Shown here: piece after piece, positions 1 to 33,705 of the stretch
Numbering within the stretch: the first letter of the stretch is position 1
Layout: every line of letters starts with the position of its first letter
IMG/VR virus record: IMGVR_UViG_3300017777_003696
Coordinates: 1 to 37,918 of that record
Direction: 5' to 3' (one strand)
DNA from: a virus
Lineage: Duplodnaviria; Caudoviricetes
DNA: 37,918 nt
Program-made: the position numbers and the translations under genes
Notes under the pieces: generated by a model
Seen by the model: only the letters and a program-made list of their open reading frames with translations
What the model was told of the DNA's origin: nothing
The model's database searches: none

Positions 1-34
1 GGCGGCAGCCCTGGCGGCAGCCCTGGCGGCAGCC
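1..34. repeat. Left copy of 34-nt terminal overlap, built from a 12-nt tandem unit (GGCGGCAGCCCT)
   Basis: GGCGGCAGCCCTGGCGGCAGCCCTGGCGGCAGCC is identical to 37885-37918. Confidence 0.97.
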
Positions 35-378
35 AACTCGTCGCGCGTCGCTTCGCCTACGGCGAAGGCTCGCGCGACTCGTATGCTCTCCCGAGGACGC
101 TTGTCCTCGGGGAATTCCTTTTCATAGATGTGAAGGACGGATTCGGCACAGTCGCACGCGAAGAGACGCGCCAGGCGGTCGCGATCTGCTTCCTGTTCCG
201 GCATTACGCCACGAAGCGCCCAAAGAGCATCGTCGATGCCGTTGCTTTCGAGAATGACGCCGAAATCAATCGGCTTGTCGGTGGGGAATCTGCTCCCGAG
301 GGTGCGGAGCAATTTGGACCAGCCTTCAGTGCAAGGCTGATGTTTGCGGAGGATGGCGAGGGTAATCGTGAGCTTCAT
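1..378 (-). CDS. 5' part of Imm5-like/Ala-repeat phage protein spanning the contig junction (not in ORF track)
   Basis: Hand translation from ATG at 378: MKLTITLAILRKHQPCTEGWSKLL...LESNGIDDALWAL...RLFACDCAESVLHIYEKEFPEDKRPRESIRVARAFAVGEATRDELAAARAAARAAA. The frame is open to base 1. The A-x-x-C-A-E-x-V-L and P-x-D-x-R-P-R motifs are typical of Imm5-like phage proteins. Confidence 0.85.
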   Translation of the reverse strand, partial: MKLTITLAILRKHQPCTEGWSKLLRTLGSRFPTDKPIDFGVILESNGIDDALWALRGVMPEQEADRDRLARLFACDCAESVLHIYEKEFPEDKRPRESIRVARAFAVGEATRDELAAARAAARAAA

Positions 379-750: not shown

Positions 751-820
751 AATCGTGATCCTGGGCGTTAGAGCTTCCACGGATGGCGTCAGTGGAGCGG
801 CCCGGAGAATTCCGGACCGC
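751..820 (-). promoter_or_regulatory. Structured 5' leader of the early operon (two hairpins)
   Basis: On the minus strand: GCGGTCCGGA-ATTC-TCCGGGCCGC (820-797), then GCTCCAC-TGACGCCATCC-GTGGAAGC (798-773), then CACGATT directly before the ATG. Confidence 0.55.
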
Positions 821-926
821 GCGAATACATACGGACATAATTTTCCCGAACACGAGAAAAATCTGTCAGTGGGTATCAGCGTGTCACTGGTAAGATTGTC
901 ATTGAAATATGTCCGTAGGCATACAC
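821..926. promoter_or_regulatory. AT-rich divergent promoter region bracketed by a 10-bp inverted repeat (operator-like)
   Basis: TACGGACATA at 830-839 and TATGTCCGTA at 908-917. TTGTCA/TTGAAA -35-like hexamers at 896-907. Lies between the divergent arms. Confidence 0.6.
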
Positions 927-965
927 GTTCCATCACGTCAGGTCTGCACGTCCCGAGTTATTCAG

Positions 966-1006
966 ATGCCCGTCGATCCTTCACCGGACGGCGGGCGTTC
1001 TGTTTT
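966..1006 (+). terminator. Intrinsic terminator ending a short rightward transcript
   Basis: ATGCCCGTCG (966-975) pairs with CGGCGGGCGT (989-998) with two G-U pairs, plus inner TCC/GGA. Followed by TCTGTTTT. Confidence 0.7.
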
Positions 1007-1011
1007 CGGAG

Positions 1012-1041
1012 TTGACGGACGCACGCATGAAGGTGCATCAC
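1012..1041 (+). promoter_or_regulatory. Putative rightward (late) promoter
   Basis: TTGACG at 1012-1017 directly after the terminator, with GTGCATCAC at the -10 position. Same layout as the candidate promoter at 11787. Confidence 0.45.
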
Positions 1042-1560
1042 GGCGGCACGAAATAATAACTCGTGACGCTCGCCAGGTGTCCGATACGACTGGCAACCCT
1101 CACCCGAACCTTGAAACCGCATAGCGGCGGGAACGGTGAGAAACTACGGTGCGCGGCCTGACTCACGAAAGGCGGACGCATCGTTCGGACCATGAGGAGG
1201 CTGGGGCGAGGAAGCTGGACCTTTCCCGCCTGGACGCTCGCGTGGCCCGACCGATGCGCCTGCTACCAGCCGCGCTTAAATCCTGTCACGTCAGAACGAC
1301 GTTGAGGACGTAGCACTGTGCCGGCTCACGCTGGGCACGCTTCCGAATTGGGACAATGCCGGGAAGCAATGTGCTGCGGTATGTCATACGCGAAGGGCTC
1401 ACGCTCAAGCAGTGGACTCCACTCCCTCACCTGGCAACGGGTGAGGTGTCTCCGCTCCGGGTCTTCGCTAAGCAGTGATCTCCTTCGGATCAGATAGGTA
1501 AGAGAAAGCGGAACTGAACCCATCGGGATAAATCCGAAGCTTGCCATCCGATGGACTCGG
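1042..1560 (+). ncRNA. Candidate large structured non-coding RNA or late-operon leader, family not recognised
   Basis: Nearly continuous nested stems by eye: 1042-1070; 1099-1104/1135-1140; rod 1151-1275; 1281-1308; 1309-1316/1371-1378 three-way junction; 1390-1400/1459-1468; 1425-1446 with GCAA tetraloop; 1520-1526/1548-1554. No convincing ORF. Confidence 0.55.
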
Positions 1561-1576
1561 TAAGAAAAGGATGTCC

Positions 1577-2272
1577 ATGAGTTTGATCAAAGGAATGGCG
1601 GCATGGCTTCAGCATTGGAGCACGGACGAAACTGGCACGCTGTTGGCGACGGGGGGAACCAATCCGTTGCCAGTCTCACAAATGGGAGCTGCGACGCTTC
1701 CGACAGGCGCGGCAACGGCGGCGAAACAGCCGGCACTCGGCACGGCGGGAACGCCTTCGGCTGATGTGATCAGCATTCAGGGCTTCGGCTACTCGCCGAA
1801 CCTTGCCTTCACGCGGGTGGCGGACACGAACGCCTACGCGGCTGGCGATGTCATCGGCATCAATGCGGCTGGCTCGCCAGGAAGCGCGATCCACACGCTA
1901 CTGACCGCTGGGCCGTCCGCTGGCGAGATCCTGATCGAAGCGGCGTCGCTGCGCATCGATCTGGCCGCTGTGCCGGCGAACATGACCAGCTTCCGGCTGC
2001 ATCTGTTCGATGCGGCGCCGGATGCGGTCCTGGACAATGCGGCTTTCGATTTGGCGTCCGCTGGTGATCGCGGGAAATATCTCGGGTTCATCGATCTGGG
2101 CGCACCGTTGGATCTCGGTTCCACGTTGCTTGCCCAGGTGGACAACGTGAACAAGCGCGTGAAGCTGGCCGCTGCCTCCACGTCGCTCTATGGCGTGCTT
2201 CAGACGAATGGCGGATACACGCCGACAAGCGCGGAGTCGTTCAAGCTGCAACTGCGCACGCGGGCCGTCTGA
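1577..2272 (+). CDS. Hypothetical virion-associated protein (beta-rich, possible decoration/fibre)
   Basis: AAGGA precedes the ATG at 1577. Ala/Gly/Thr-rich, with an R-x-A-D-T-x-A-Y-A-A-G-D-V motif I associate with phage structural proteins. Confidence 0.7.
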   Translation: MSLIKGMAAWLQHWSTDETGTLLATGGTNPLPVSQMGAATLPTGAATAAKQPALGTAGTPSADVISIQGFGYSPNLAFTRVADTNAYAAGDVIGINAAGSPGSAIHTLLTAGPSAGEILIEAASLRIDLAAVPANMTSFRLHLFDAAPDAVLDNAAFDLASAGDRGKYLGFIDLGAPLDLGSTLLAQVDNVNKRVKLAAASTSLYGVLQTNGGYTPTSAESFKLQLRTRAV

Positions 2273-2275
2273 GCC

Positions 2276-2929
2276 ATGCGCACGCTGCCTCCCCAGGCGC
2301 TGGATCCGTTCAAGTTGCCGCACCTGGCGTTCGCCTTCGACTCACGCAATCCGTGTGGACTGGTGGCGGACGCGTCGGGGAATGTCTCGCGATGGCTGGA
2401 CCGTTCCGGCCGCAATCGCGATTTGACGGGCGCCGGGGCGGCAATGCCGGTGTTCACGCCGGGCAACGGTCTGCTGTTCAATGGCGTCGCGAACAGCCTG
2501 GTGTCGGCGGCGGTGACGCGCACCCAGCCGGTGACGATGTATTTGGTTTTGCTGCAAGTGGCGGGAAACACGTCTGTCACGGGTGGCGCGTCGAACAACA
2601 CGCTGCGGATGCTTCAGCTCAACCTTCAGCTTTCGAACGGTGGCGGTGCGGCTTGCACGAATTCCGCGCTTGCGGCTGGAACGTTCGGTGTCGTGGCGGC
2701 TGTCCACAATGGCGCATCGAGTTCGATCAAGGTGAACCGTGGCGCACCTGTCACCGGCAACCCTGGCACGAATGGCGGCACAGTGCTGACGCTGGGACAG
2801 CGCGGCGACGGCGCTGGCTTCTGCAACTGCCGTGTGAAGGCGTTGCTCGAATTCACGGTGGCGCACGACGAAGCAACTCAGGCCCGCATCGTGGCCGCTC
2901 TGATCCGGCGCTATGGCATCGTGGAATGA
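2276..2929 (+). CDS. Putative LamG/concanavalin-like beta-sandwich virion protein
   Basis: V-S-R-W-L-D-R-S-G-R-N-R-D-L N-terminal motif, LLFNG, and C-terminal L-x-x-R-Y-G-I, as in phage LamG-like domains. Tightly coupled to the upstream gene. Confidence 0.7.
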   Translation: MRTLPPQALDPFKLPHLAFAFDSRNPCGLVADASGNVSRWLDRSGRNRDLTGAGAAMPVFTPGNGLLFNGVANSLVSAAVTRTQPVTMYLVLLQVAGNTSVTGGASNNTLRMLQLNLQLSNGGGAACTNSALAAGTFGVVAAVHNGASSSIKVNRGAPVTGNPGTNGGTVLTLGQRGDGAGFCNCRVKALLEFTVAHDEATQARIVAALIRRYGIVE

Positions 2930-2935
2930 ATTCGC

Positions 2936-3268
2936 ATGATCGAATTCACAAAGGAGAATCGCCGCGAGACGTGGTGTTCCTGGCACGATGACATGAGCCT
3001 GAACCGGCGCCAGGCGATGACGCTGGCGGCGGATGCGAACGCGACGAAGAACAAGCTGCTTCGGGAAGCGGTGGAAGCGCACCTGGGCCGGCTTCCTACG
3101 GACAAGGCGATTCATGAGCTGGTGACGGAACGCCGGGAGCCGGGCAGTGCGGTGATCTGGGTGTGCTGGGCGGACACGGCCATTGCCATCCGAACGGATT
3201 GCACGGCGAAGGTGAAGGATCGGCGCTACCTGCTGACGTGGTTCTGGAAAACGCTGCCAAAACGATGA
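2936..3268 (+). CDS. Hypothetical protein
   Basis: Fills the gap between neighbours, with an ATGA overlap to the next gene. Confidence 0.7.
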   Translation: MIEFTKENRRETWCSWHDDMSLNRRQAMTLAADANATKNKLLREAVEAHLGRLPTDKAIHELVTERREPGSAVIWVCWADTAIAIRTDCTAKVKDRRYLLTWFWKTLPKR

Positions 3269-3939
3269 AGCCAACACGCGAGCGGGCCCAGACGAACACG
3301 GCGGGAGTAGTGTCGAAGGACAGGAATTCGAGCGGGCCACGGCCGGATGTGTCCACGTCAGGCGGGTCGAGTCCTGGCGAGCTGGCAACGACGGACGGCT
3401 GGGTGCCAGTGGGCGGAATCGTGATGTATTCGGGCGCGTTCGCCGACATCCCGGACACCTGGCATCTGTGCGATGGCACGGACAGCACGCCAGACCTGAC
3501 GGATCGCTTCATCCTCGGGACGAACACGGAAGGCGAGCTGGGCGACGTAGGCGGTGCGAAGAAGCATCGGCACAATCTTATCGCGGCGGACACGCCGGCC
3601 GGCACGGCGACGGTGGTAGCCATCACGGCGGGCACGCCAGCGGGCACGCTGGATTCGGTGAGTGCGGGCACGCCAGCGGGCACAATCGACGCGCACACGA
3701 CAACGGCGGCACTTCTTTCGGGCCTTGGGACGACGCTCCTCACGGGCCCCGGGACGCATTCCTTCACGGGCACGGCACTCGCCGGCCACACGCACACGTT
3801 CACGGGCACGGCACTGGCAACGCACACGCATCTTCTCGCCGGCAAGACAGCCCTGGGTGAGAGCGAAGCAGGCGCCTACGGCGCGAACGACACGCTTCCG
3901 CCGTTCTACAAGCTGGCGTTCATTCAGCGCATCCGGTGA
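3265..3939 (+). CDS. Tail-collar-domain fibre protein with HxH repeats
   Basis: VPVGGIVMYSG...IPDTWHLCDGTDSTPDLTDRFILG (tail collar signature), HRH/HTH motifs, and C-terminal LPPFYKLAFIQR. ATG at 3265 overlaps the upstream stop. Confidence 0.85.
   Translation: MKPTRERAQTNTAGVVSKDRNSSGPRPDVSTSGGSSPGELATTDGWVPVGGIVMYSGAFADIPDTWHLCDGTDSTPDLTDRFILGTNTEGELGDVGGAKKHRHNLIAADTPAGTATVVAITAGTPAGTLDSVSAGTPAGTIDAHTTTAALLSGLGTTLLTGPGTHSFTGTALAGHTHTFTGTALATHTHLLAGKTALGESEAGAYGANDTLPPFYKLAFIQRIR
3628..3815 (+). repeat. Intragenic direct repeats in the collar-fibre gene
   Basis: 20-mer GCGGGCACGCCAGCGGGCAC at 3628-3647 and 3664-3683. 17-mer TTCACGGGCACGGCACT at 3763-3779 and 3799-3815. Confidence 0.9.
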
Positions 3940-4478
3940 CGACGGTTCGCAAACGTGGCCGCGAGGACAAGCTGACGCCTGGACAAGCCCGTTACGTCCA
4001 GTTCCGGCTTGCTGGCGACAAACGGCAAGCGGCCTACGCGAAGGCGTTCCCAGGTGCCTCGAAGTCGGCACTGGCGTGCAAGCCGTATATGCTCGAACGC
4101 AACCCGCGCGTGATCGCGGCCATGAAGGCGGCGAATGCTGGCGATGCGCAACGGTTGGCGAAGCTGACGCGCTCGGGTGACACGGTGGCGGTGATCGCGG
4201 CCGGCGCCGTCGCGCGTGAAGTGCTCGAAGTGGGCATGACGCGAGCGGAGAAGCGGCGCGTGCTGAAGCGGCTGGCGATGAATCCGAAGCTGCCGGCCAT
4301 CGATCGCATCCGTGCAATCCAGGTGGACAACCTGATGACGGGGGACAACAAGCCGGTGCGGTTCGAGGGTGAGATCACGCTTCACGGCATCTTCCAAGCC
4401 TTGGGTTCAACGACGGGACTGCCTGATCCGAACGAGGTGTTCGAGCTGGCGCCGGGCGACGCTGTTCTTCCTCCATGA
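3936..4478 (+). CDS. terS: Terminase small subunit (putative)
   Basis: KLTPGQARYVQ...QAAYAKAFP...ML..NPRV is the helix-turn-helix-type N terminus of TerS proteins. DRIRAI motif. Lies upstream of terL. Confidence 0.7.
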   Translation: MTTVRKRGREDKLTPGQARYVQFRLAGDKRQAAYAKAFPGASKSALACKPYMLERNPRVIAAMKAANAGDAQRLAKLTRSGDTVAVIAAGAVAREVLEVGMTRAEKRRVLKRLAMNPKLPAIDRIRAIQVDNLMTGDNKPVRFEGEITLHGIFQALGSTTGLPDPNEVFELAPGDAVLPP

Positions 4479-4792
4479 AACCACATCCTCACTCGCCCAA
4501 CTGGACACGCTGGCTCGGACACCTGATCGGCAAGCCGGCCCGTGGCTTGGAGATTGGAACGTGGAAGGGTGAGAGCGCCGAATGGATGCTGGACAACGTG
4601 TTCACGCATCCGGATTCGTCTTACACCTGCATTGATCACTTTCGCGGGTCGGTGGAACATCATATCGGCGGACACGATTGCTCGGCGCTCGAACGTGATG
4701 CACGGGCCCGGGGGAACTTCGATTCTGGGCTGAAGCACGCCCAGGACAAACGCGCGTCCATCGTGCCACGGCTCGAACAGGTGATTCCATGA
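4475..4792 (+). pseudogene. Truncated class I SAM-dependent methyltransferase (Methyltransf_24-like), probably a deletion fusion
   Basis: GLEIGTWKGESA (motif I) and TCIDHF (motif II) are present. The ORF ends at 105 aa without the later D-x-I-Y-I-D-G-x-H strand. No continuation is possible in other frames before the next gene at 4789. Confidence 0.6.
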
Positions 4793-5388
4793 AGATTGCC
4801 GTCCTGGCCTGTGGGCCGTCCTTGGTGAAGCACTACGACACGCGCGAGGCGTTCGACCTGGTGATCGCCGTGAACAGTGCCGGGCATCTCTATTCGTGCG
4901 ACTGGCTCGCGTTCTCGGATCGTCACATCATCGATCCCGTGGTGGCCGGGGAATACAGTTGGCCGCGTGTCGGACTGCTCACGAATACGGGCTGGAAGAG
5001 CGCAGCAAACGCGCTGGGCCTACGTTTCGAGCCGTTGCCGATCTACGACTACCGGCTGAAAAACCTGACGCCAGCGATGGCCGGCCTGTGCATCGAGCAA
5101 GGAATGACGGAATGCGGGTTCACGTTTCCGAACGCGCTCTTCTTCGCCGGCACGAAGAAGCCGGACGAGTTGCATGTGTTCGGCTTCGACTGCGCGATGA
5201 CGGAAGAGGACGTGGCTGGCGTGAAGGGCTATCACACGCGCAAACGCTGGACGACTGAACTGCCGTGGATTCGTGAAGTGCTGAAACCAATCGAGCGCGT
5301 CGTTCTGCGCTGTGATGCGTCGGACAAGGTGAAGCGTTGGGTGCTTGGCAAGTCGAACGCGGACGTGAATTCACTCTTCCCGAAATGA
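4789..5388 (+). CDS. GT42/Maf(DUF115)-like Rossmann-fold glycosyltransferase-like protein
   Basis: AVLACGPSL, VIAVN, WLAFSD and LHVFGFD...YH motifs follow the order seen in CstII sialyltransferase/Maf-type proteins. Confidence 0.6.
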   Translation: MKIAVLACGPSLVKHYDTREAFDLVIAVNSAGHLYSCDWLAFSDRHIIDPVVAGEYSWPRVGLLTNTGWKSAANALGLRFEPLPIYDYRLKNLTPAMAGLCIEQGMTECGFTFPNALFFAGTKKPDELHVFGFDCAMTEEDVAGVKGYHTRKRWTTELPWIREVLKPIERVVLRCDASDKVKRWVLGKSNADVNSLFPK

Positions 5389-5573
5389 AATGCCCAGTGT
5401 GCGACAAACGGATTGAGCCGAAGCATTCTTACCTTTGCGTGAAGTGCTTCTGGGAAACGCCGGCTTCGCTTCGGATGAAGCTGGGCCATCTGCATCGGAT
5501 GAAACAGCCGGTGGACGCGCTGGTGGCGAAGATCGTCCGCACACTGCGCCCAGCGTCAGACCCAAATCCATGA
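5385..5573 (+). CDS. Small zinc-finger protein
   Basis: MKCPVC...LCVKCF. ATGA overlaps on both sides. Confidence 0.7.
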   Translation: MKCPVCDKRIEPKHSYLCVKCFWETPASLRMKLGHLHRMKQPVDALVAKIVRTLRPASDPNP

Positions 5574-7228
5574 AGAAGCCGAAACAGAAGAGCGCGGACG
5601 AGGTGGCGGCTGAAAAGGCCATCGCGGCAAAGCTGTCGAACCGGGCCTGGCGCCTGAATAACCTCTATTGGATCGAGGACGAGAACGGCCGCAAGGTGAA
5701 GTTCCGCCTGAACTGGGCCCAGCGCGCGTTCTTCGCCGTGATGTGGTGGCTGAACGTCATCCTGAAGGCGCGGCAACTCGGCATGTCCACGTTCATCATG
5801 CTCGCGCAACTGGACCGCTGCCTGTTCAACGCGAATCAGACGTGCGGGCTGATCGACAAGACGGATGAGGACGCGAAGAAAAAGCTGTCACGTCAGAAAT
5901 TCGCCTACGATCACCTGGACGATCCGGACGATCCTGCCACGGCCCAGCTCGGCGCCGGCATCAAGCAAGCGGTGGCGCTGCTGATCGAGAACAAGAAGGA
6001 ACTGGAATTCTCGAACGGCTCGAAGATTTGGGCGGGCACGTCGCTGCGCGGTGGCACGGTGCAATTCCTGTGGATCTCGGAGCTGGGTTACATCGCGTTC
6101 CACTTCCCGGACAAGGCTAAGGAGATCAAGGACGGTGCGCTGAACACGGTTCACGCCGGGAACATGGTCGTCATCGAGTCTACGCACGAAGGCGGGAAAT
6201 ATGGGCTGAACTACGCGATGATCAAACTGGCCCAGGAAGCGCCGAAGGTGATGACGGCGATGGACTGGCGATTCCACTTCTTCCCGTGGTGGCGCGATCC
6301 GAAATACACGCTGGCGCTTCAGGCTCCGCTCGTCCTGGACCGCGAGCTGACGGAATACTTTGCTGCGCTCGAAAAGAACGAGGGCATCAAGCTCACGCCG
6401 GAACAAAAACACTGGTATGCGAAGAAGCGCGCGACGCAGGGCGATGCGATGGGCAAGGAATTCCCTTCGACCGCTGAAGAGGCGCTGAACGCCGTCGTCA
6501 CTGGCGCCATCTACGGGAAGATCATCAGCAAGCTACGGCGCGAACGCCGGATCGTGGACTTCCCGCACAACCGGATTGCTCCGCTGATCACGTCCTGGGA
6601 CATCGGACAATCGGACTTTACGGCCGTCTGGCTGGTTCAGCTCGTCGGCTTGGACATCTGCATTCTGGACTTCTACGAAAACCACGGCGAGGCGCCGGGC
6701 CATTACGTGGCGAAGATCCGGGAGTGGGAACGGAAGTATGGCGCGCCGATCACTCAGAACCTGGTTCCGCACGACGCTGACAATCGCGGGCCTGGCGGTA
6801 AGACGTGGGTGGACTATGCGAAGGAAGCCGGCCTGACGTGCATCAAGGTCGTTCCGCGCACGCCGGACGTGTGGGTGGGCATCAACTACCTTCGCGCGCT
6901 GTTGCCACGCTGCTACCTTCACCTGACGGGATGCGGCCAGGAATGGAAGCTGGACGAAACGCCGATGCCGTCCGGTGTGGCTGCGCTCGAAGGCTACCAC
7001 ACGGAAACGGAGATCAGCGAAGGCACGATCAAGGAAATGCCGGTGCATGACGCTTGCTCACATCCGTGTGACGGACTGCGGACGTTCGCCGAAGCACACG
7101 CGCGCGGGATGCTCGAAGGCACGTCCATGACGGCGAAGGAAACGCATCGCGAGAATCGGAAGGTGGTTATGGGCATCCGCCAGCTATACGGCACGGACTT
7201 CAAACCACGGCCGAAGGTGATCCGATGA
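5570..7228 (+). CDS. terL: Terminase large subunit
   Basis: ILKARQLGMST Walker A, LWISELG Walker B, IESTHEG coupling motif, SWDIGQSD and SHPCDGLR nuclease motifs. The ATG at 5570 overlaps the upstream stop. Confidence 0.95.
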   Translation: MKKPKQKSADEVAAEKAIAAKLSNRAWRLNNLYWIEDENGRKVKFRLNWAQRAFFAVMWWLNVILKARQLGMSTFIMLAQLDRCLFNANQTCGLIDKTDEDAKKKLSRQKFAYDHLDDPDDPATAQLGAGIKQAVALLIENKKELEFSNGSKIWAGTSLRGGTVQFLWISELGYIAFHFPDKAKEIKDGALNTVHAGNMVVIESTHEGGKYGLNYAMIKLAQEAPKVMTAMDWRFHFFPWWRDPKYTLALQAPLVLDRELTEYFAALEKNEGIKLTPEQKHWYAKKRATQGDAMGKEFPSTAEEALNAVVTGAIYGKIISKLRRERRIVDFPHNRIAPLITSWDIGQSDFTAVWLVQLVGLDICILDFYENHGEAPGHYVAKIREWERKYGAPITQNLVPHDADNRGPGGKTWVDYAKEAGLTCIKVVPRTPDVWVGINYLRALLPRCYLHLTGCGQEWKLDETPMPSGVAALEGYHTETEISEGTIKEMPVHDACSHPCDGLRTFAEAHARGMLEGTSMTAKETHRENRKVVMGIRQLYGTDFKPRPKVIR

Positions 7229-7443
7229 ACGACATCGATCCGAAGCGCGGCGCTGTCATCGGCGCGGCCTATCACCTGATGCAGTTCATGAACACGAAGG
7301 TCGGACACACGCGGGACTGGCCTGTGCGCATCATGGCAGACTCGCCGGAAAGGGAAGAGCTGGCGCGGCTCTTGGACGAAACGAACAAGGCGCTGGAAAC
7401 CCTGATCAAATGCGAGCGGAACGCATCATCGACGCGGACCTGA
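7225..7443 (+). CDS. Hypothetical protein
   Basis: ATGA overlap with the terL stop. Confidence 0.6.
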   Translation: MNDIDPKRGAVIGAAYHLMQFMNTKVGHTRDWPVRIMADSPEREELARLLDETNKALETLIKCERNASSTRT

Positions 7444-7775
7444 TGGCGCGCGTTCAGGCCGCGATGGCGGCGGACGGTGGGCACAACGTTCCTTGCGTGA
7501 CGCACGCGCTGATAGGCCAGGACGGCACGATTTGGGGCGCCTTCAGCGTCGTCTATGCGCCGGCCCTGTTCTTCTGGATGGACACGCGCAAAGGCACAGG
7601 GCTGGCGTCCCTGCGCGGTCTGCGCGCGGCACAGGCTGAGTTCAGGCGCCTGGGCCATCGGCGTATCTTATTGCCGATCCAGTCGGATTCACCCTATTAC
7701 CCGTTCGTCCGCTCCATCGGGTTTTCCCCGATTGGGCCGTGCGAGTTGTTCGAATTCAATCCACCGGAGGAATAG
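7410..7775 (+). CDS. Degenerate GNAT-fold-like protein
   Basis: Size, position before the portal, and C-terminal FVRSIGFSPIG resemble GNAT motif B. Confidence 0.55.
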   Translation: MRAERIIDADLMARVQAAMAADGGHNVPCVTHALIGQDGTIWGAFSVVYAPALFFWMDTRKGTGLASLRGLRAAQAEFRRLGHRRILLPIQSDSPYYPFVRSIGFSPIGPCELFEFNPPEE

Positions 7776-7777
7776 CC

Positions 7778-8041
7778 ATGTGCTTCAAATCCAAATCTTC
7801 TTCTTCACCGGCTCCCGCGCCGGCCGCTCCCGCCGCTGTGTCGGCTCCTTCCGTGGTTGCGCCGACGAAGCCACCGGCCGCTGTGCCTCCCGTGACTGAA
7901 CGCACGGTGGAAGTTGAAGCGGCGTCGCGACAGACGCGCGTGGACGCAAAGAGGCGGAAGGGGATGCGTTCGACGCTCCTGGCCGGCGAGACGGGCGGCT
8001 ATCAGGCGCCCGGTGAAGAGAAGAAAACTCTGCTGGGCTAA
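7778..8041 (+). CDS. Small pre-portal virion assembly protein (T7 gp7.3-like position)
   Basis: GGAGG RBS. MCF start, Pro/Ala-rich linker, RRKGMRSTLL and C-terminal KTLLG, typical of this gene in podoviruses. Confidence 0.8.
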   Translation: MCFKSKSSSSPAPAPAAPAAVSAPSVVAPTKPPAAVPPVTERTVEVEAASRQTRVDAKRRKGMRSTLLAGETGGYQAPGEEKKTLLG

Positions 8042-8056
8042 CCGGAGATCATCACC

Positions 8057-9748
8057 ATGGCATCGAAGAAGAAAGACGAACTGGCGGAACAACTGGTGGC
8101 GCGACACAACGCGCTGAAGTCGGATCGCGGGACGTGGGATGTGCTTTGGCAACAGATCGCGGACTACGTGATGCCACGGAAGAGCCAGGTGACGACGAAG
8201 AAGACCGAAGGTGTCGAGGGCTTCACGGATGACATCTACGACATGACGGTGATCCGGTCGAACATGACGCTTGCGGCCGGACAACTGAACTACGTCACGC
8301 CGGCAACTGATCGCTGGTTTGCATTCGAGCCACCGGAAGAGATGAAGGAAGCGGGCGGCGACGCGGCGGCGCGCTGGTATCAGCTTTGCACGGAAATCGC
8401 GTTCCGTGAGTTGGCCCGGTCAAACTTCTATCTCGAAATTCACGAGCTGTTCCTGGACCGGGGCGGCTTCGGCACGTCGATCATCTTCGCCGAAGAGGGC
8501 AAGCGGGTAACGCTGAAGTTCGAAAACTGGGAGGTGGGCACGTATTCCATCGCTGAAGACGATGAAGGCGTGGTGGACACGGTGTTCCGCGAATTCGAGC
8601 TGACGTGTCGCCAGGCCATTCAGAAGTTCGGCATCGAGCACTGTGGCGAGACGATTCAAAAGTGTTACGAAGAGCGGAAGCCGACATCGTTGGACAAGAA
8701 GTTCACGTTCATTCACGCCATCTTCCCGCGTGCGGACGATCAGCGGAAGCCGGGCAAGATCGACGGCCCGAACAAACCCATCGCGTCCGTTTACGTGTCG
8801 GTGACGGACAAGGTTTGTGTCCGGAATGCCGGATACGACGAAGCGCCGGCCGCTGTCTCGCGCTTCCTGAAGTGGGGCAAATCGCCATACGGCTATTCGC
8901 CCAGCATCGAGGCGCTTCCCACCGTCCGCCAGGTGAACTTCATCGAAAAGCAGATGGACGCGCTGGCGGAACTGGCCGCGTTCCCGCGTATCCTGATCCC
9001 GGATGGGCTCGAAGGTGACGTGGATCTTCGGAGTGGTGGTGTGACTGTGTTCGATCCGAACAACGTGAACGCCGTGCCGAAGGAATGGGCGACACAAGGG
9101 CGCTACGACATCGGCCTTCAGCGTGTCCAGGCGAAGCAGAAGCAGATCGAAGAGGCGTTCCATGTGACGCTCTTCAAAATGTTTGCCGAACGGGAAAAGC
9201 AGATGACGGCGCGCGAGGTGATCGAACGCGTCCAGGAAAAGCTCGTTCAGTTCTCGCCGACGTTCGCGCGCATGACGACGGAGCTGCTGAATCCGCTGCT
9301 CGAACGCGTGTTTGGCATCCTCTTCCGTGCTGGCAAATTCCCGGATCCACCGGAAGAAGTGTTCGTGGTCGGGCCCGATGGCGTGTCGCTGCCACTGCCA
9401 CAGGTGGCTTACACGTCGAAGATCGCGCTTGCGATCAAGGCGCTCGAAAATCAATCGTTCCTTCAGTTCGTGGAAGTGGTGGCGCCGTTGGTTCAGGTCG
9501 ATCCGTCCGTGATGGACGCGCTGAACACGGACAAGGCGATGAAAGGGCTGGCGCGCAATCTGTCGCTGCCGGCCGATTGGATTCGCACGGACGAAGAGAT
9601 CGGCGCCATCCGCCAGCAACGTGCCGAAGCGCAGCAAGCCCAGGCGGCGGCTGAACAGGCGAAGCTCGTCGCTGGCGCGGCGAAGGACATGAGCGCGGCC
9701 GATCCGGCGATGAAGAAGCTCGCGCTGGCCGGGATGGTTCGGACGTGA
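8057..9748 (+). CDS. Portal protein (head-to-tail connector, T7 gp8/BPP-1-like)
   Basis: 563 aa. SNFY...DRGGFGT, SPYGYSP, QMTAREV and ELLNPLLERVF motifs, Gln/Ala-rich tail. GGAG RBS. Confidence 0.95.
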   Translation: MASKKKDELAEQLVARHNALKSDRGTWDVLWQQIADYVMPRKSQVTTKKTEGVEGFTDDIYDMTVIRSNMTLAAGQLNYVTPATDRWFAFEPPEEMKEAGGDAAARWYQLCTEIAFRELARSNFYLEIHELFLDRGGFGTSIIFAEEGKRVTLKFENWEVGTYSIAEDDEGVVDTVFREFELTCRQAIQKFGIEHCGETIQKCYEERKPTSLDKKFTFIHAIFPRADDQRKPGKIDGPNKPIASVYVSVTDKVCVRNAGYDEAPAAVSRFLKWGKSPYGYSPSIEALPTVRQVNFIEKQMDALAELAAFPRILIPDGLEGDVDLRSGGVTVFDPNNVNAVPKEWATQGRYDIGLQRVQAKQKQIEEAFHVTLFKMFAEREKQMTAREVIERVQEKLVQFSPTFARMTTELLNPLLERVFGILFRAGKFPDPPEEVFVVGPDGVSLPLPQVAYTSKIALAIKALENQSFLQFVEVVAPLVQVDPSVMDALNTDKAMKGLARNLSLPADWIRTDEEIGAIRQQRAEAQQAQAAAEQAKLVAGAAKDMSAADPAMKKLALAGMVRT

Positions 9749-10047
9749 GCCAGGAACAGAAACAGGCTGAAGCGCAGTTGCGGCACGAACGCCTGTGCCT
9801 GGCCTACGCTCGCGTGCTGGGCCAGGACGGCGCCAGGTCGGAAGATCAGGCGCTCGTGATGGCGGACATGGAACATCGCGGCTACATGCACCGGAGCACG
9901 ATGGTTCCGGACGCTGGCGGCGGTCAGTGCGAACATCGAATCTCGTCAGCCGAAGGACAGCGCATCTTCGTCCTGAATACGAAACAGCTTATCCGGGGCG
10001 CGAAGCTTTCGGAAAAGAAGAAACCCGTAACCGTTAAGCGAAAATGA
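9745..10047 (+). CDS. Conserved post-portal small protein (Bbp19-like)
   Basis: AYARVL...LVMADM...AEGQRIFVL pattern. GTGA overlap with the portal stop. Confidence 0.75.
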   Translation: MSQEQKQAEAQLRHERLCLAYARVLGQDGARSEDQALVMADMEHRGYMHRSTMVPDAGGGQCEHRISSAEGQRIFVLNTKQLIRGAKLSEKKKPVTVKRK

Positions 10048-10589
10048 AAAACACTGCACCCGTCACCGATGGCCCAAGCAAAGCCCCACAAATCGACTAC
10101 GCCCTGAACGAGAAGGGCGAGATCACGCGCACCGATAAGGACAGCACGATCATCATCGGCCGGTATGATCGCACGACGAAGATCGTGCGCATCGTTCCGG
10201 AGTGGGCGAAGTTCCGCCCGGCGATGATCCGATTCCTGAACGCGGAAGAGATCGGCATCGAGTCCATCCTTCTCGAAGGCGACAAGCCGGACGTGGTTCC
10301 GGACGCCGGCATTCCTCCGCGCCCGAAGATGACGATTGAGGCGGGCGACAAGACGCCGGCCGTGGTCGAGTGGTATCGGAAATACAAGCCGGCCGAATAT
10401 CGTGCGCGCTACGGCATCAAGGGCGACGGCGTGATCACGAAGCATCGGAAGGAGAAGAACGAGAAGGGCGAGACGATCAGCGTCCCCTACGAAGTCGAAG
10501 CGACGCTGGCGCATCGGAAGACGCACCTGACGGAGAAGATCGAGGCCGGGGACAATCCCGAGGACTCTGGCGAAACGCCGGCCGTCTAA
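10044..10589 (+). CDS. Hypothetical protein in the head module
   Basis: ATGA overlap and typical codon usage. Confidence 0.8.
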   Translation: MKNTAPVTDGPSKAPQIDYALNEKGEITRTDKDSTIIIGRYDRTTKIVRIVPEWAKFRPAMIRFLNAEEIGIESILLEGDKPDVVPDAGIPPRPKMTIEAGDKTPAVVEWYRKYKPAEYRARYGIKGDGVITKHRKEKNEKGETISVPYEVEATLAHRKTHLTEKIEAGDNPEDSGETPAV

Positions 10590-10618
10590 CTCTGCGTCTT
10601 CACTTCAACACGTAACCG

Positions 10619-11716
10619 ATGAAACGATTTCAAAAACTCTATGCACCCGAAGGCGATGGCGGTGGTGGTGGCTCTGGTGGCACTGGCGGCGGTTCCCCTG
10701 GGGCTGGCGCTGGCGGCGCGCCGGGTGCCAGCGGTGGCGCCGGCACGCTTCTGTCGGGTTCGCCTGGCAATGGCACGGGAAGCGGCGGCACGGGCGGCGG
10801 CGGTGGGGCTGCGGGTGCGCCTGGAAGCGGTTCTGGATCTGGCGGCGCTCCCGGCGCTGCTGGCGCCCAGGGCGGGGGTGCGCCAGCATCAGGTCAGTCG
10901 TGGTTCGTAGGACTCTACGGCAACGACGGGAAGATCGACGCGAAGAAGTTCGACGCGCTTCCTGATCACCTGAAGGCACACGCCGACACGTTCAAAAAGT
11001 ATCAGACGGTCGAAGCGTTGCTGGGCGGCATGGGCAACCTGGCGAACCTCGCCGGCAAGAAGGGGCTCGAACCGCTCGCGAAGGACGCACCGGCTGAACT
11101 GGTGGCGGAACGCACGGCGCTGATGCGCAAGCTGAACAACGTCCCGGAGAAGCCGGAAGGCTACGGCATCAAGAAGCCGGACGGCCTTCCTGACGATCAG
11201 TGGAACGGCGAATACGTCGGCGGCATCCTCGGCGTCCTGCACAAGCACAACGCCAGTCCTGAGCTGGTTCAGGAGCTGACGAAGTTCGACGGCGAGTTTG
11301 CCGGCAAGCTGCGCGCTGGTGGCGAAGCGGCCCAGGCGGAAACGCTGAGGAAGGAAGGCGAGGCGTTGCGCACGGCGTTCGGGTCTGACTTCGACAAGAA
11401 GCTGGGTCTGGCGAAGCGCGCGGCGGCAACGCTGGGCTTGGATGTGAACGATCCGGCCATCGGCAACAGTTCGAAGATGATCGTCGCCTTGGCGAAGGTC
11501 GCTGAGATGGTTTCCGAAGACAAACTGGTGTCCGGCGACGGTGGCGCCGACTTCGGGAAGGGTGATCGCGAGAAGGCGCTGGACATCGTGAACAACCCGG
11601 CGAACCCGCTCCACAAATCATTCCACGATGCCGAACATCCCCAGCATCAGGCGGCGGTCGAAGCGCGCTCTGCGTTCAACAAACGCTGGCACGAATCACA
11701 ACGGCGGAAGGCGTAA
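10619..11716 (+). CDS. Capsid scaffolding/assembly protein
   Basis: Position before the capsid gene. Gly-rich N terminus, VPEKPEGY, SEDKLV and C-terminal HPQHQAAV motifs. Confidence 0.85.
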   Translation: MKRFQKLYAPEGDGGGGGSGGTGGGSPGAGAGGAPGASGGAGTLLSGSPGNGTGSGGTGGGGGAAGAPGSGSGSGGAPGAAGAQGGGAPASGQSWFVGLYGNDGKIDAKKFDALPDHLKAHADTFKKYQTVEALLGGMGNLANLAGKKGLEPLAKDAPAELVAERTALMRKLNNVPEKPEGYGIKKPDGLPDDQWNGEYVGGILGVLHKHNASPELVQELTKFDGEFAGKLRAGGEAAQAETLRKEGEALRTAFGSDFDKKLGLAKRAAATLGLDVNDPAIGNSSKMIVALAKVAEMVSEDKLVSGDGGADFGKGDREKALDIVNNPANPLHKSFHDAEHPQHQAAVEARSAFNKRWHESQRRKA

Positions 11717-11743
11717 GAACGCCATTCTTACGGCATTGTTTCG

Positions 11744-11780
11744 GCCCGGTGGCGCCCCATGGCCCATCGGGCTTTTTATT
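11744..11780 (+). terminator. Intrinsic terminator after the scaffold gene
   Basis: GCCCGGTGG (11744-11752) pairs with CCATCGGGC (11764-11772), followed by TTTTTATT. Confidence 0.8.
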
Positions 11781-11786
11781 ACCTGA

Positions 11787-11815
11787 TTGACGGGAATGCA
11801 CCTGGCGCGCATTGC
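11787..11815 (+). promoter_or_regulatory. Putative capsid-gene promoter
   Basis: TTGACG-N17-CATTGC immediately after the terminator. Confidence 0.5.
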
Positions 11816-11819
11816 TCGG

Positions 11820-11963
11820 GAACAGAGGGGCACGCAGACACCCGGCGAAAGCCGGCCTAAACGGCACTCGGACACGTCCGAAGCGTTCAGGCCCAGACGG
11901 AAACCCTGACGCGACAGACCGGCCCGCGTCCGCAACGCGGTTCATGTCAGAGTCAAAAACGTC
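11820..11963 (+). promoter_or_regulatory. Structured 5' leader of the major capsid gene
   Basis: CCGGC-GAAA-GCCGG (11842-11855), TCGGAC/GTCCGA (11868-11881), CCGCGT/ACGCGG (11924-11940), CTGAC/GTCAG (11906-11910/11946-11950). Confidence 0.55.
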
Positions 11964-12863
11964 ATGCTCACTCAACTTCCGGAACATTATCAGACGGACT
12001 TCGCTGATAACTGGGAACATCTCCTTCAGCAGAAGGATTCGCGGCTCGAAGGCCGCTGCCGTAAGGCCACTGTCAAAGGCAAGGAACGCACCTTCTCCCA
12101 GCTCGGGAAATCGAAGATGCGGCTGATCACCACGCGCAACGGCCAGACCGTGCCAAGTGATTCCACGATGGCGAAGCGCTGGGTGCGGCCGAAGGGATAC
12201 GATGAAGTCACTTTCATCGATCAGTTCGATCACATCGCGCTTGGCGAACTTCCGGCTCCCGAGTCGGAGCACGTTCAGGCGCACGCGATGGCCGCGAAGC
12301 GGACCATTGACGAGGTGATCATTGCCGGCCTGGAAGGCACGGCCTACATCGGCGAAGACGGCACGACTGCCGTGGACCTGGGCAACGGCCAGAAGGTCGC
12401 CGTGAACTACGTTCAGTCCGGTTCCGCCGTGAACAGCGGGCTCACGCTCGCGAAGATGGCACGCGCGAAATACATCCTGGACGTGAACGAGGTCGAAGAC
12501 GAAGACCGCTACCTGATCGTGTCGGCGAAGCAGATCAACGATCTCCTCGTCAACGTGGTCGAGATCAAGTCTTCGGATTACAACGAGGTGAAGGCGCTGG
12601 TGGACGGGAAGGTGAACCGTTTCATGGGCTTTGACTTCGTGCGCACGCAACTCCTGACGCTGGTGACGGCAACGGACGTGCGGACGTGCATCGCCTACCA
12701 CAAGATGGGCGTCGTGCTCGGCATCGGCATGGAAAAGTCGGTGAAGATCGACATCCGCGCCGACCTGAACCACACGATCCAGATCCGCACGGTCATCATG
12801 ATCGGGGCGTCGCGCATGGAAGAAGAGCGCGTGGTTCTCGTCTATTGCGACGAGTCTCCGTAA
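11964..12863 (+). CDS. Major capsid protein
   Basis: 299 aa. LLQQKDSRL, AAKRTIDEVII, SSDYNEVKALVDG, FMGFDFV and GASRMEEERVV motifs of a widespread podovirus capsid family. Confidence 0.93.
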   Translation: MLTQLPEHYQTDFADNWEHLLQQKDSRLEGRCRKATVKGKERTFSQLGKSKMRLITTRNGQTVPSDSTMAKRWVRPKGYDEVTFIDQFDHIALGELPAPESEHVQAHAMAAKRTIDEVIIAGLEGTAYIGEDGTTAVDLGNGQKVAVNYVQSGSAVNSGLTLAKMARAKYILDVNEVEDEDRYLIVSAKQINDLLVNVVEIKSSDYNEVKALVDGKVNRFMGFDFVRTQLLTLVTATDVRTCIAYHKMGVVLGIGMEKSVKIDIRADLNHTIQIRTVIMIGASRMEEERVVLVYCDESP

Positions 12864-12908
12864 TCCAGATACGCAACAAAAAGAAAACAACCATAGGAGA
12901 AAATCCAC

Positions 12909-13382
12909 ATGGCTACTTCAAATACGACAATCTACGGCAAGCAGATCGATCCCACCATGGGCAATCGGCTGACGCCTCGTGAACTGTGCTCGAAAACCTT
13001 CTTCGCTGACATCCCTTACACGATTCTCGGCACGGAGGCCCAGGGCGACTTCCTGAATCTGATCAAGCTGCCACAGGCCGCTGTCATCGATCCGACGCTT
13101 TCGAGCGTTGTCACCGATGGCATCGCCACCACGGCGACGCTCGACATCGGCGACGATGACGACGAGGGCGTTGGTGCGGCGACGGATGCTGATCGCTACG
13201 CGGACGGCTTGGACGTTGCGGCGGCTGGCGTCGATCTGTTCAGCGCGAACGCGGCGGCGGCTCGGCTTGTGCCCTACAAGCTCAGCAAGGATTCGATCAT
13301 CAAGCTCGAATTCAAAACGCTGGTGACTCCGGTTGCCGGCAAGAAGCTGCTGATCCGTTTGGCTTACCGGATCGAGGGTTAA
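12909..13382 (+). CDS. Putative capsid cement/decoration protein
   Basis: AGGAG RBS. Directly after the capsid gene and before a strong terminator. Jelly-roll-like pattern (TLDIGD...DRYADGLDV). Confidence 0.75.
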   Translation: MATSNTTIYGKQIDPTMGNRLTPRELCSKTFFADIPYTILGTEAQGDFLNLIKLPQAAVIDPTLSSVVTDGIATTATLDIGDDDDEGVGAATDADRYADGLDVAAAGVDLFSANAAAARLVPYKLSKDSIIKLEFKTLVTPVAGKKLLIRLAYRIEG

Positions 13383-13424
13383 TCCTCGCGCCGGGCCTTG
13401 GGTTGGGGGTTTGTAGGTTACGGG

Positions 13425-13468
13425 CGCCCGGCGCTGGTGGATCAAACCACTGGCGCCGGGCGTTTTTT
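13425..13468 (+). terminator. Strong intrinsic terminator after the capsid/cement genes
   Basis: 16-bp stem CGCCCGGCGCTGGTGG/CCACTGGCGCCGGGCG followed by TTTTTT. Confidence 0.92.
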
Positions 13469-13490
13469 CTAACACGAAGGAATCACGCAT

Positions 13491-14096
13491 ATGCCATCGA
13501 AGACTGAAATCGCGAACATGGCCCTTCATCGGGTCGGGGCTCAGCGCATCATGGACCTGAATGACGCGGACTCGAAGAGTGCGCGCGTGCTTCGGGACTT
13601 CTTCGAACCGGCAATCCGTGAGGTTGGCCGGCTGGCGGAATGGCAATGCCTGAAGGATCGGGCGACGCTGGGCCAGCTCGCGACGGCGCCGGCCTTTGGC
13701 TGGGATTACGCGTATCAGCTTCCGGCGACGTTTCTGCGGCTCGTGAAGCTGAACGGCGTGGATTACCGGGGACAGCCTGGCGACGATCACGAAATCGAGG
13801 GGCGCACGCTTTTGACGGATCAGACGACGGCGGACATCGAGTTCATCGCCTACAAGGAAGACACGACGGACTACGATCCGCTGTTCGTGAAGGCCATCGT
13901 CGCGAAGCTGGCGGCTGAAATTGCGGTTCCTCTTCGCCAGGACGAAGCCCTGGCCGCTCGGCTGATGGGTGAGTTCGAACAGCTCGCGCTTCCGAAGGCG
14001 CGCACGAAGACGGCCGGCGAGCGTCGTCCGAAGCGGTTCGATCCGACCGCTGAATGCTCGTTCCTGAATTCGCGCTTCAACTCCACGAACGGCTGA
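13491..14096 (+). CDS. Tail tubular protein A/adaptor (T7 gp11-like)
   Basis: EIANMAL.RVG, P.FGWDYAYQLP..FLR and DPLFVKAI..KLA.EIA motifs. Confidence 0.88.
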   Translation: MPSKTEIANMALHRVGAQRIMDLNDADSKSARVLRDFFEPAIREVGRLAEWQCLKDRATLGQLATAPAFGWDYAYQLPATFLRLVKLNGVDYRGQPGDDHEIEGRTLLTDQTTADIEFIAYKEDTTDYDPLFVKAIVAKLAAEIAVPLRQDEALAARLMGEFEQLALPKARTKTAGERRPKRFDPTAECSFLNSRFNSTNG

Positions 14097-14098
14097 AC

Positions 14099-16681: not shown

Positions 16682-17082
16682 ACAGCATCCGAGAAATCAA
16701 TTTGGACGTGGATCATCCCGTTCTTTCGGTCTGGTGGGAAGCGCACGGCTGGCCCGTCGTTCCGCGCGCGATCCTGCCGAAGCTGGGCGTGATGGCGATG
16801 GCTGGGGATCTGCGCGTTGCGGCCGGCTTCCTCTACATGGACAACTCTGTGGGCGTTTCGATGCTCGAATGGCTCGTGACGAACCCGGACGCCACGGGAA
16901 GGCAATCCCTGGCGGCTATCGGCGCCGTCATCGGCTTCCTGTCTGAACGCGCGCTGGAAATGGACTACGGCGTGATGCTTACGAGCTGCCGTCAGCAAGG
17001 GCTCGCGCGCATCTTCGAACATCACGGCTTCGCCAAAACGGACGAAGGAATCATTCACATGGTCCGCAAACTTCGGGAATAA
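16678..17082 (+). CDS. GNAT-like protein (T7 gp13-like position)
   Basis: ATG at 16678 overlaps the nozzle stop. VAAGFLY, EWLVTNP and IFEHHGF motifs. Confidence 0.8.
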   Translation: MNSIREINLDVDHPVLSVWWEAHGWPVVPRAILPKLGVMAMAGDLRVAAGFLYMDNSVGVSMLEWLVTNPDATGRQSLAAIGAVIGFLSERALEMDYGVMLTSCRQQGLARIFEHHGFAKTDEGIIHMVRKLRE

Positions 17083-17083
17083 C

Positions 17084-17725
17084 ATGGCCGCTCTCACCAC
17101 TCTCGCCGTTGCTTCACTCGCTGCCACGGCTGTCGGCACTGGTGTCGCCATGTATGGGCAGGCCCAGGCCGCAAAGACCGCGAAGAAGGTCGGCGACTAC
17201 AACGCCAGCGTAGCCGAACAGAACGCCGGCATCGCCGATCAGAATGCCAGGCAGATCGCGGAAACCTCGGAATACAACGCGAAGGTGTTGGAGGTTCAGG
17301 CGATTCAGACGGAGATGGACGGCCGGGAGAACATTCGCCGGAAGCGGGCTGAGAATAAGCGTTACGCTTCGACGCAGCGGGCGCGCTTTGCGGCGTCTGG
17401 CGTCACGGAAGAGGGTTCGCCCTTGGAAGTGATGGCAGAGACGGCGGCACTGCTCGAAATGGATGCCCAGGAGGTCAATCGCCAGGCGCAGATTCGCCAG
17501 GCCCAGCTTCGGGCTGGCGCGACGGAGGAACGGCGCCAGGGGCTATTCCAGGCCGATCAGGCGCGGCAACAGGGTTCGCAGTATCGCACGCAAGCCGGGT
17601 TCGAACGCATGTATGGCGCGGCCAGCGCCAGCGCAGCGAAGATCGGGATGGCGTCCACGCTTCTCGCGGGTGCTTCGAGCATGGCCGGTTCCGCTTACAC
17701 CTTCCGCCGTCAAGGCGCTATCTGA
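17084..17725 (+). CDS. Internal virion (ejection) protein, gp14-like
   Basis: Hydrophobic Ala/Gly N terminus, Gln/Ala-rich helices, QRARFAASGV...GSPLEV motif. Confidence 0.85.
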   Translation: MAALTTLAVASLAATAVGTGVAMYGQAQAAKTAKKVGDYNASVAEQNAGIADQNARQIAETSEYNAKVLEVQAIQTEMDGRENIRRKRAENKRYASTQRARFAASGVTEEGSPLEVMAETAALLEMDAQEVNRQAQIRQAQLRAGATEERRQGLFQADQARQQGSQYRTQAGFERMYGAASASAAKIGMASTLLAGASSMAGSAYTFRRQGAI

Positions 17726-17727
17726 TC

Positions 17728-23990: not shown

Positions 23991-24025
23991 TGGATTTCCC
24001 GATGGCAACCTAATACTGAAGACCC

Positions 24026-24628
24026 ATGATCTCATCGACCACAGCGAAGGTTCAATTCACCCTTTCGAGCGGCGATCAGTCGCTGGCGATCCCGTTCTAC
24101 TTCCTGGAAAACTCGCATGTGAAGGTCGTTCGCACGCGTAACGGCGTGGACACTACGCTGTCGGCGACGGGTTACTCTCTGACTGGCGCCGGGGCTGAAG
24201 CGGGCGGAACGTGCGTTCTTACTGGCCTGGAATCGGCCGGTGGTGATCGGCTGACAATTCTGCGCAACGTGCCTGCAAGTCAGTTGGTGGACTACGCTCC
24301 GAATGATCGCTTCCCGGCGAGCACGCACGAACGCGCGCTGGATAAGCTGACGATGCTGGGCCAGCGGTTTCTCGAACTGGCGGAACGCGCGCTTCGCTTC
24401 GGCGAGGGCGAGGTGATCGGGAGCGGCAATGTTCTGCCGAATGCCATCACACGCGCGGACAAGATCCTGGCTTTCGATGACGACGGTGCGCTGGACCTGT
24501 CGCTGGGCTTGGACGACGTGCGCACCATCGTCATCGCGAACCCGGTGGCTGCACTTTCGGACGTGACGGATTACGGCTCTGTCGGCGATCCAGTGACAGA
24601 CGTGGCCGATTACGGATCAATCGCATAA
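24026..24628 (+). CDS. Tail fibre adaptor (T7 gp17 N-terminal-like anchor)
   Basis: IPFYFL...VKVV, LTILRNVP..Q..DY, FPASTHERALDKLTM. Ends with two D-V-x-D-Y-G-S repeats. Confidence 0.85.
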   Translation: MISSTTAKVQFTLSSGDQSLAIPFYFLENSHVKVVRTRNGVDTTLSATGYSLTGAGAEAGGTCVLTGLESAGGDRLTILRNVPASQLVDYAPNDRFPASTHERALDKLTMLGQRFLELAERALRFGEGEVIGSGNVLPNAITRADKILAFDDDGALDLSLGLDDVRTIVIANPVAALSDVTDYGSVGDPVTDVADYGSIA

Positions 24629-24647
24629 TTCAAAAGGAAAAACCAAC

Positions 24648-27537: not shown

Positions 27538-27771
27538 ATGAACGACTTCCTCAATCGCATTGCTGACGAAGTGAAGCCTGGTGTGGCGCACACGGTGGGA
27601 GCCGTGTCGGGCGGCACTGGCTTGGTGTTGTGGGCGGACATCGCGAAGCATCTAACGATCATGATGGGCCTGTTGATCGCCGTCATGGCGTTCATCGGTG
27701 GCGTGTTCTACGCCACATATTGGGCGATCAAGGCGCTGCGGGAGTGGAAGGAAATGCGGAAGAGCGGCTGA
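27538..27771 (+). CDS. Holin-like small membrane protein
   Basis: 77 aa, 1-2 hydrophobic segments, charged C terminus. Last gene of the late arm. Confidence 0.55.
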   Translation: MNDFLNRIADEVKPGVAHTVGAVSGGTGLVLWADIAKHLTIMMGLLIAVMAFIGGVFYATYWAIKALREWKEMRKSG

Positions 27772-30424: not shown

Positions 30425-30426
30425 GG

Positions 30427-31764: not shown

Positions 31765-31769
31765 GGGCG

Positions 31770-33665: not shown

Positions 33666-33705
33666 GAGCTGGAAAGTTGGCCGGATAACGCGCCGGCCGC
33701 GCGGT

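Follow-up and report, generated by a model that had tools for sequence, protein, structure and literature searches.

The window, that is, the whole stretch of DNA analysed here, is the complete 37,918-nt record of a freshwater phage, and because its ends overlap by 34 nt (37885-37918) it is circular. The genome is organized in two divergent arms. The rightward arm begins at 1577 and carries genes for packaging and for the virion, among them those of terminase, head-tail adaptor (portal), capsid and tail, while the leftward arm carries replication genes (primase-helicase, Pif1-like helicase, exonuclease and methyltransferase). The element described here sits between the two arms, directly before the late arm and on the same strand. 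In fact, 751-1570 is the largest intergenic gap (820 nt, with the gene set chosen for this analysis) of an otherwise tightly packed genome, and the runner-up, 1-387, proved to be coding. A first-pass annotation made from the sequence had designated 1042-1560 as the largest gene-free stretch and as one 520-nt structured RNA. That stretch does lie within the largest gap, but its bounds were wrong, and the 5' bound at 1042 cuts through a predicted three-way junction. The features of the region are compiled in Table 1. The phage family is represented by at least 430 capsid relatives. None of 58 GTDB candidates was confirmed as a capsid relative by alignment, so that no host genome emerged from GTDB.

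Table 1. Features of the gap between the two arms and of the start of the late arm
Feature	Position	Strand	Remarks
Inverted repeat, left arm	820..842		Operator-like; partner 905-927; 23 nt, 78% complementary; possible operator role
Inverted repeat, right arm	905..927		Pairs with 820-842
Promoter-like site of the leftward (early) arm	840..869	-	No other promoter-like site in 600-1700, where chance alone would give 0.7
Putative rightward (late) promoter	902..929	+	TTGAAA-16-CACGTT, read from the sequence; absent from the consensus-scan list
Predicted three-way junction around the terminator-like hairpin	949..1068	+	z -4.46, 0 of 200 shuffles as good; mean pair probability of closing helix 0.84
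Intrinsic-terminator-like hairpin (967-997) with T-run to about 1006	967..1006	+	From sequence and prediction
Predicted hairpin with CUCACC/GGUGAG closure	1099..1140	+	Within a part replaced in the relative
Conserved core, 5' part (5' strand of rod base)	1144..1183	+	One letter differs in X10 over 40 nt, plus one gap
Variable distal half of rod	1184..1251	+	X10 has 74 different letters in place of these 68 nt; robust helices in the ensemble
Conserved core, 3' part (3' strand of the rod, a hairpin at 1281-1308, the three-way junction 1309-1378 and a final domain that includes the GCAA hairpin 1425-1446)	1252..1475	+	Three letters differ in X10 over 224 nt, plus one gap
Variable 3' hairpins, including 1520-1554 and the strand of a formerly proposed pseudoknot	1476..1558	+	X10 has 76 different letters in place of these 83 nt
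Ribosome-binding site and start of first late gene	1559..1581	+	1 changed letter in X10; predicted unpaired up to 1570
First late-arm gene, function not assigned	1577..2272	+	1218 relatives; no Pfam or PHROG family

Among the sequencing runs listed as containing the stretch there was no RNA run, a result that carries no weight on expression. We compared the stretch with four of the runs (X4, X7, X9 and X10). It is at least 99% identical in X4, X7 and X9, with no listed difference, and these runs therefore add no variation. The one homologue that differs lies on a 42,132-nt contig of run X10, which keeps five separate blocks, namely 751-799, 954-1006, 1144-1183, 1252-1475 and 1559-1581. The parts between them are replaced, in order, by 523, 326, 74 and 76 other letters. 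The two blocks of the core, 1144-1183 and 1252-1475, are kept at 95-98% identity. A contig of equal length encodes a capsid that is 93% identical (P0208) and a next gene that is 62% identical (P0003, whose start is matched by the loose-end letters of the X10 alignment); through this link the contig belongs to a close relative, and the core is kept better than either protein. Moreover, the inner break of conservation falls exactly, and symmetrically, on the predicted pair 1183-1252, the pattern to be expected if the stem is conserved and its tip variable. Because the replaced part 1184-1251 ends at this very pair, a real core at 1144-1475 is supported. Three internal changes have a listed place: the insertion lies in a predicted loop, the deletion removes a bulge, and the only such substitution, at 1330, disrupts 1325-1330, the pair predicted to close a loop. 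As the sole homologue is a close relative, the 98% identity could also reflect recent exchange, and with one homologue covariation cannot be counted.

The inverted repeat 820-842/905-927 adjoins both divergent promoter candidates and resembles an operator. The putative late promoter has counterparts in related phages, the leaders of L255, L264 and L311 opening with similar TTGA..-16/17-(C/G)ATGGT sites. The TTGACG site formerly proposed as promoter and start is absent from the consensus-scan list and is located inside the predicted junction at 949-1068. In this junction two loops could kiss through about six pairs (976-981 with 1028-1033); the X10 contig keeps only 954-1006 of it, with 7 changed letters. 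The terminator-like hairpin 967-997 is predicted to form in nascent RNA at a probability of 0.93-1.0 for three trial starts. Downstream of the core the scan lists no terminator-like site, and such sites are not enriched in the window (19 against 18.0 expected in 1500-20000; 24 against 19.3 in 20001-37918). A switch that sequesters the ribosome-binding site was considered and rejected, with 1557-1570 predicted unpaired.

We then turned to the predicted folding of the element. Every strand pair that we checked among the stems of the first-pass annotation was present where it had been placed. None of 100 dinucleotide shuffles folds as well as 1042-1560 (z -2.75). The minus strand performs equally (z -2.72), so that energy cannot pick the strand; over 1006-1560 the minus strand folds better (z -4.09 versus -2.55 for the plus strand, 25 shuffles). 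The earlier assignment to the plus strand therefore finds no preference in energy, but it is retained because of the context and the GCAA and UUCG loops. The whole stretch 905-1570 reaches z -3.84 (20 shuffles), and the conserved core alone is weaker (-1.87 on the plus strand and -1.69 on the minus strand). As background we took 26 windows of 332 nt (plus strand, eight shuffles per window), of which one fell below -2.75 and another was at -2.7; with the background reaching comparable values, the folding signal is moderate.

In the ensemble of 936-1570, eight helices, which include most of those proposed, are robust, with mean pair probabilities of 0.81-1.0 (1177/1258, 1185/1250, 1190/1245, 1309/1378, 1318/1338, 1339/1367, 1425/1446 and 1520/1554), but the proposed rod base 1151/1275 and multiloop closure 1390/1468 are not (0.02 and 0.12, respectively). 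The rod base does form in the isolated rod (z -3.74). The hairpin 1520-1554, although robust in the ensemble, lies in a part replaced in X10 and gains no support there, and the proposed pseudoknot between 1451-1456 and 1507-1512 is lost, its strand 1507-1512 falling in the same replaced part. CTCAC occurs five times in 1042-1560 against 19 times on the whole plus strand (0.26 expected), a count that was chosen post hoc; the region also contains two complements of the motif (GTGAG) and a 10-nt sequence that is present at both 1323 and 1396, and one CTCAC copy is broken up in X10.

No Rfam 15 family matched the window at the gathering threshold, and a search of 800-1700 up to E 10 gave only four matches at chance level (E 2.1-9.9). 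Nothing of tmRNA, RNase P RNA or intron type was found among the Rfam 15 families present as models, and the window contains no tRNA or tmRNA gene. The region is also unlike a small protein gene, as neither a conserved frame nor protein relatives were found across it: none of its seven ORFs is recorded as a protein, and the longest, a 73-aa ORF on the minus strand, has no relative among 1.84 billion. The ORFs 1149-1313 and 1318-1497 (both plus strand) are disfavoured because the insertion and the deletion in X10 both shift their frame, while the 40-aa ORF 1356-1478 lies almost wholly inside a kept block, with no frameshift speaking against it. The claim of a structured non-coding element outside Rfam is thus supported by the Rfam search, the shuffles and the core kept in X10. 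A core of some 330 nt (1144-1475) within the leader of the late operon describes it better than one 520-nt RNA starting at 1042. Judging from predicted folding and from sequence comparison, whose support is weak, this uncatalogued structured element in a phage late leader is probably real.

We further searched for more homologues of the element. BLAST against phages and plasmids returned no real homologue, and nhmmer and BLAST over 236 loci returned none either. In exact-pattern searches, which miss diverged copies and may lack very close records, IMG/VR yielded no stretch in one search and 42 in another, none of which extended beyond 22 nt; JGI metagenomes yielded 92, one being the same genome (L123) and the others lacking extension; and GTDB yielded no match. 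Comparison with 23 related virus records as wholes gave only chance matches of 14-23 nt (in three of five, none of five and one of 13 records). The structure model of the core, R2, was run over 94 loci (five, then 89 of about 336) with a best E of 1.1. A match in L257 was rejected for lying inside a gene. The core was not detectable in relatives whose capsids are 66-82% identical. No description of the element was found in the literature searched. A catalogue of over ten thousand candidate viral RNAs (PMC10690425) gave no match in six of its supplementary files, and three others may list the element or the motif M described below.

In phages whose capsids are 72-82% identical, the same slot is taken by a non-coding leader, which opens with a terminator-like hairpin. 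A stem of at least eight pairs followed by a T-run occurs in all 11 leaders examined, the picks in L255 and L266 being doubtful, and only two of seven leaders of relatives beat shuffles on the sense strand. In L004, L246, L264, L311 and L283 the terminator loop complements a site that lies 42-56 nt upstream, and in L242 one that lies downstream, over 12 nt; such complementarity has a null P below 0.02 in three of the 11 leaders, i.e. L242 (12 nt), L264 (9 nt) and L311 (8 nt). In the window the loop-target complement is 6 nt and not significant (null P 0.72), and a c4-like loop-target switch was rejected there on these values. At five loci (L004:7388-7484, L246:4857-5003 on the minus strand, L264:2043-2154, L255:6600-6700 on the minus strand and L311:520-625) a hairpin with a GNRA loop precedes the terminator-like hairpin, whose loop complements the 5' strand of the first hairpin through a pairing sequence that varies among the phages (in L255 as seen by eye). 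From sequence, this two-hairpin arrangement looks like a conserved switch or pseudoknot. The late leader of L004 is headed by a tRNA-Thr-like gene (7266-7348).

Comparison of the leaders also turned up a second structured RNA. The L167 leader shares a module with that of L242 (75% over 110 nt), and a pattern derived from it gave 48 stretches, four of which are real: L294:1820-2145 (plus), L242:12448-12775 (minus), L311:650-920 (plus) and L167:5440-5790 (plus). We refer to this RNA, which spans about 330 nt, as motif M. It follows a promoter and a terminator-like hairpin and stands just before unrelated genes. It has a near-invariant block of 27 nt, and its members, when folded singly, keep stems through different sequence. 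No Rfam family matched up to E 5. In an alignment fitted to the structure, two of 18 modelled pairs changed on both sides, and 14 of 500 shuffles reach this score. Motif M is a new, uncatalogued, four-member structured RNA family.

The core of the window resembles motif M in that the motif fills the same slot in a relative whose capsid is 82% identical, is also about 330 nt long and has a similar helix order. Collinear block similarities end at 1133, 1281, 1297 and 1445, and one block match ranks first in the genome, with 42 overlapping blocks tried. However, the core lacks most of the 27-nt block and the 3' closing motif. With the motif M profile, members left out one at a time scored 115-167 and the window 16-38 against nulls of 16-28; over 12 settings, 13 to 259 of 400 shuffles scored as high as the window. 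The motif M model R1 gave no plus-strand match in the core, and reciprocally R2 found nothing in the four member loci. Homology of the core to motif M was therefore rejected, since 36 of 500 shuffles were as high, the profile scores were not significant under most settings and far below those of members, and both models failed. It is speculative and unlikely that both belong, as distant members, to a single uncatalogued class of RNAs of about 330 nt that fill an exchangeable slot behind late promoter and terminator. In such a class CUCAC loops would swap GUGAG partners to switch the fold or multimerise, and the RNA would reprogram the host RNA polymerase or work as a free RNA machine, with no phage protein involved.

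In the late leader of phage lambda, pR' is followed by the terminator tR' and then by the late genes, with Q as antiterminator. The window has a similar layout, i.e. a putative promoter, a terminator-like hairpin about 70 nt later and then late genes; the promoter-proximal intrinsic terminator of the lambda type has its counterpart, by sequence and prediction, in the hairpin 967-997 with its T-run. In contrast to lambda with its Q, no Q-family match was found in the scanned ORFs of the window, and about 560 nt of non-coding sequence follow the terminator. The scans (41 ORFs for PHROG, 21 for Pfam, 46 for Pfam and 17 for PHROG) covered part of the 255 ORFs and could miss a divergent antiterminator; within them no match to RNA polymerase, Q, N or the NusG family appeared, which makes a factor-free RNA plausible.

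Such an RNA is known from phage HK022. Its put is a protein-free, cis-acting antiterminator that works through the zinc-binding domain of the beta-prime subunit. According to PMC9378689, put is about 70 nt long with two stem-loops, and putR, which lies about 270 nt from its start, exerts its effect across 10 kb. Both put and the core are phage leader RNAs after a promoter and before a long operon, with no dedicated protein found, and the core starts about 210 nt after its putative start, to be set against about 270 nt for putR. By position the core fits, standing ahead of a long operon, behind a promoter that is itself putative and absent from the scan list. However, put as described there serves early genes and is small, whereas the core precedes late genes and comprises about 330 nt with multiple junctions and at least seven predicted helices.

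By analogy with these systems, the leader would likely help to control how far transcription runs into the late genes. More specifically, we give a probability of roughly 40% to the reading that the core at 1144-1475 is a folded, cis-acting late-leader RNA, like lambda pR'/tR' combined with HK022 put. Host polymerase would start near 936 from the putative promoter and mostly stop near 1006; late in infection it would read through the first terminator, and the core would then fold and, as put does, make the polymerase resistant to stops over the late arm of roughly 26 kb. Being downstream of the first terminator-like hairpin, the core cannot itself open that terminator. This cis-acting reading is favoured by the position ahead of the late arm, the conservation in five blocks and the layout shared with relatives, and it is weakened by the single close homologue, the late promoter that fails the scan, the terminators that are not enriched and a core more than four times as large as put. 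If the core is put-like, an uncultured phage family would supply a much larger example of protein-free antitermination, one that serves late genes, and would reveal how phages without a recognisable Q or polymerase time those genes. The case for the element comes from one close homologue, through sequence comparison and predicted structure.

A possible though doubtful alternative is that the core works in trans as a separate RNA, released from the leader by processing or produced on read-through. It could be a self-assembling ornate RNA, a sponge that binds protein through repeated CUCAC loops, or an RNA for antisense control or immunity of the P4 CI or IsrK type. Stand-alone RNAs would typically combine a compact conserved block with variable hairpins at the periphery, the repeats CTCAC and the 10-nt repeat with their GTGAG complements would suit such a role, and motif M, which shares the slot, precedes unrelated genes. 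Still, no terminator-like site follows the core, the interrupted CTCAC copy in X10 and a repeat count picked post hoc weaken the case, and the loop-to-target pairing of relatives is not significant in the window. According to PMC4825925, P4 CI with seqA/seqC and Gifsy-1 IsrK combine a short terminated form with a long structured read-through leader, from which IsrK and P4 CI stem, much like the layout of the window; the c4 antisense RNA (PMC2864571) has a parallel in the terminator loops of several relatives that complement a nearby site. The window differs from these in having no Rfam match, no significant loop complement and no integrase found. ROOL and GOLLD, suggested by the first-pass annotation, are likewise large, many-stemmed phage RNAs whose function is not known; according to bioRxiv 10.1101/2024.12.08.627333 they often lie near tRNA islands, have multiple covarying pseudoknots and form RNA-only multimers. 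The core has no Rfam match, no tRNA in its genome, a size of only about 330 nt and no supported pseudoknot, the proposed pseudoknot strand not being kept in X10; this assignment is not supported.

The core may also have no selected structure and be a GC-rich spacer common to one close relative via recent recombination. The sole homologue with its 93% identical capsid, a core z of only -1.87 and the lack of homologues in the IMG/VR, JGI metagenome, GTDB, phage and plasmid searches speak for this, but we consider it quite unlikely, as the five kept blocks coincide with separate predicted elements, the break falls on a predicted base pair, 905-1570 folds at z -3.84 and 820 nt are kept free in a tightly packed genome. 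A DNA element, either a replication origin for the primase-helicase or a site for protein binding or packaging, with hairpins in single-stranded DNA, would agree with the position between divergent arms, the encoded primase-helicase and Pif1-like helicase, the short repeated motifs and the strand-symmetric folding. It is decidedly unlikely, for the core has no iteron array or AT-rich tract, and the G-U pairs and GCAA/UUCG loops suit RNA. Cumulative GC skew over the whole window has its minimum at 92 and its maximum at 37889 without returning to baseline in the leftward arm, so that the plus strand is G-rich overall; with no switch point inside the element, locating an origin from skew was rejected. 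The multi-junction fold with conserved single-stranded linkers (e.g. 1276-1280) would allow a self-cleaving or processing ribozyme that matures the late transcript, as had been suggested. This we consider very unlikely: nothing points to a ribozyme, no Rfam family matched even up to E 10, the proposed pseudoknot is not conserved, and small self-cleaving classes are far smaller than about 330 nt.

Some features elsewhere in the window were recorded as well. The coding window 12001-12332 in the capsid gene reached z -5.4 on the plus strand with only eight shuffles, which may be noise. For 388-750 the atlas look-up gave no usable match. The 110-aa gene at 2936-3268, which is conserved in the family, resembles ribbon-helix-helix proteins below the 0.9 bar of the atlas look-up and is a lead only. 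The end junction (37885-37918 and 1-387) is crossed by a gene on the minus strand (phrog_18326), whose product of about 143 aa contains Ala-Arg repeats.
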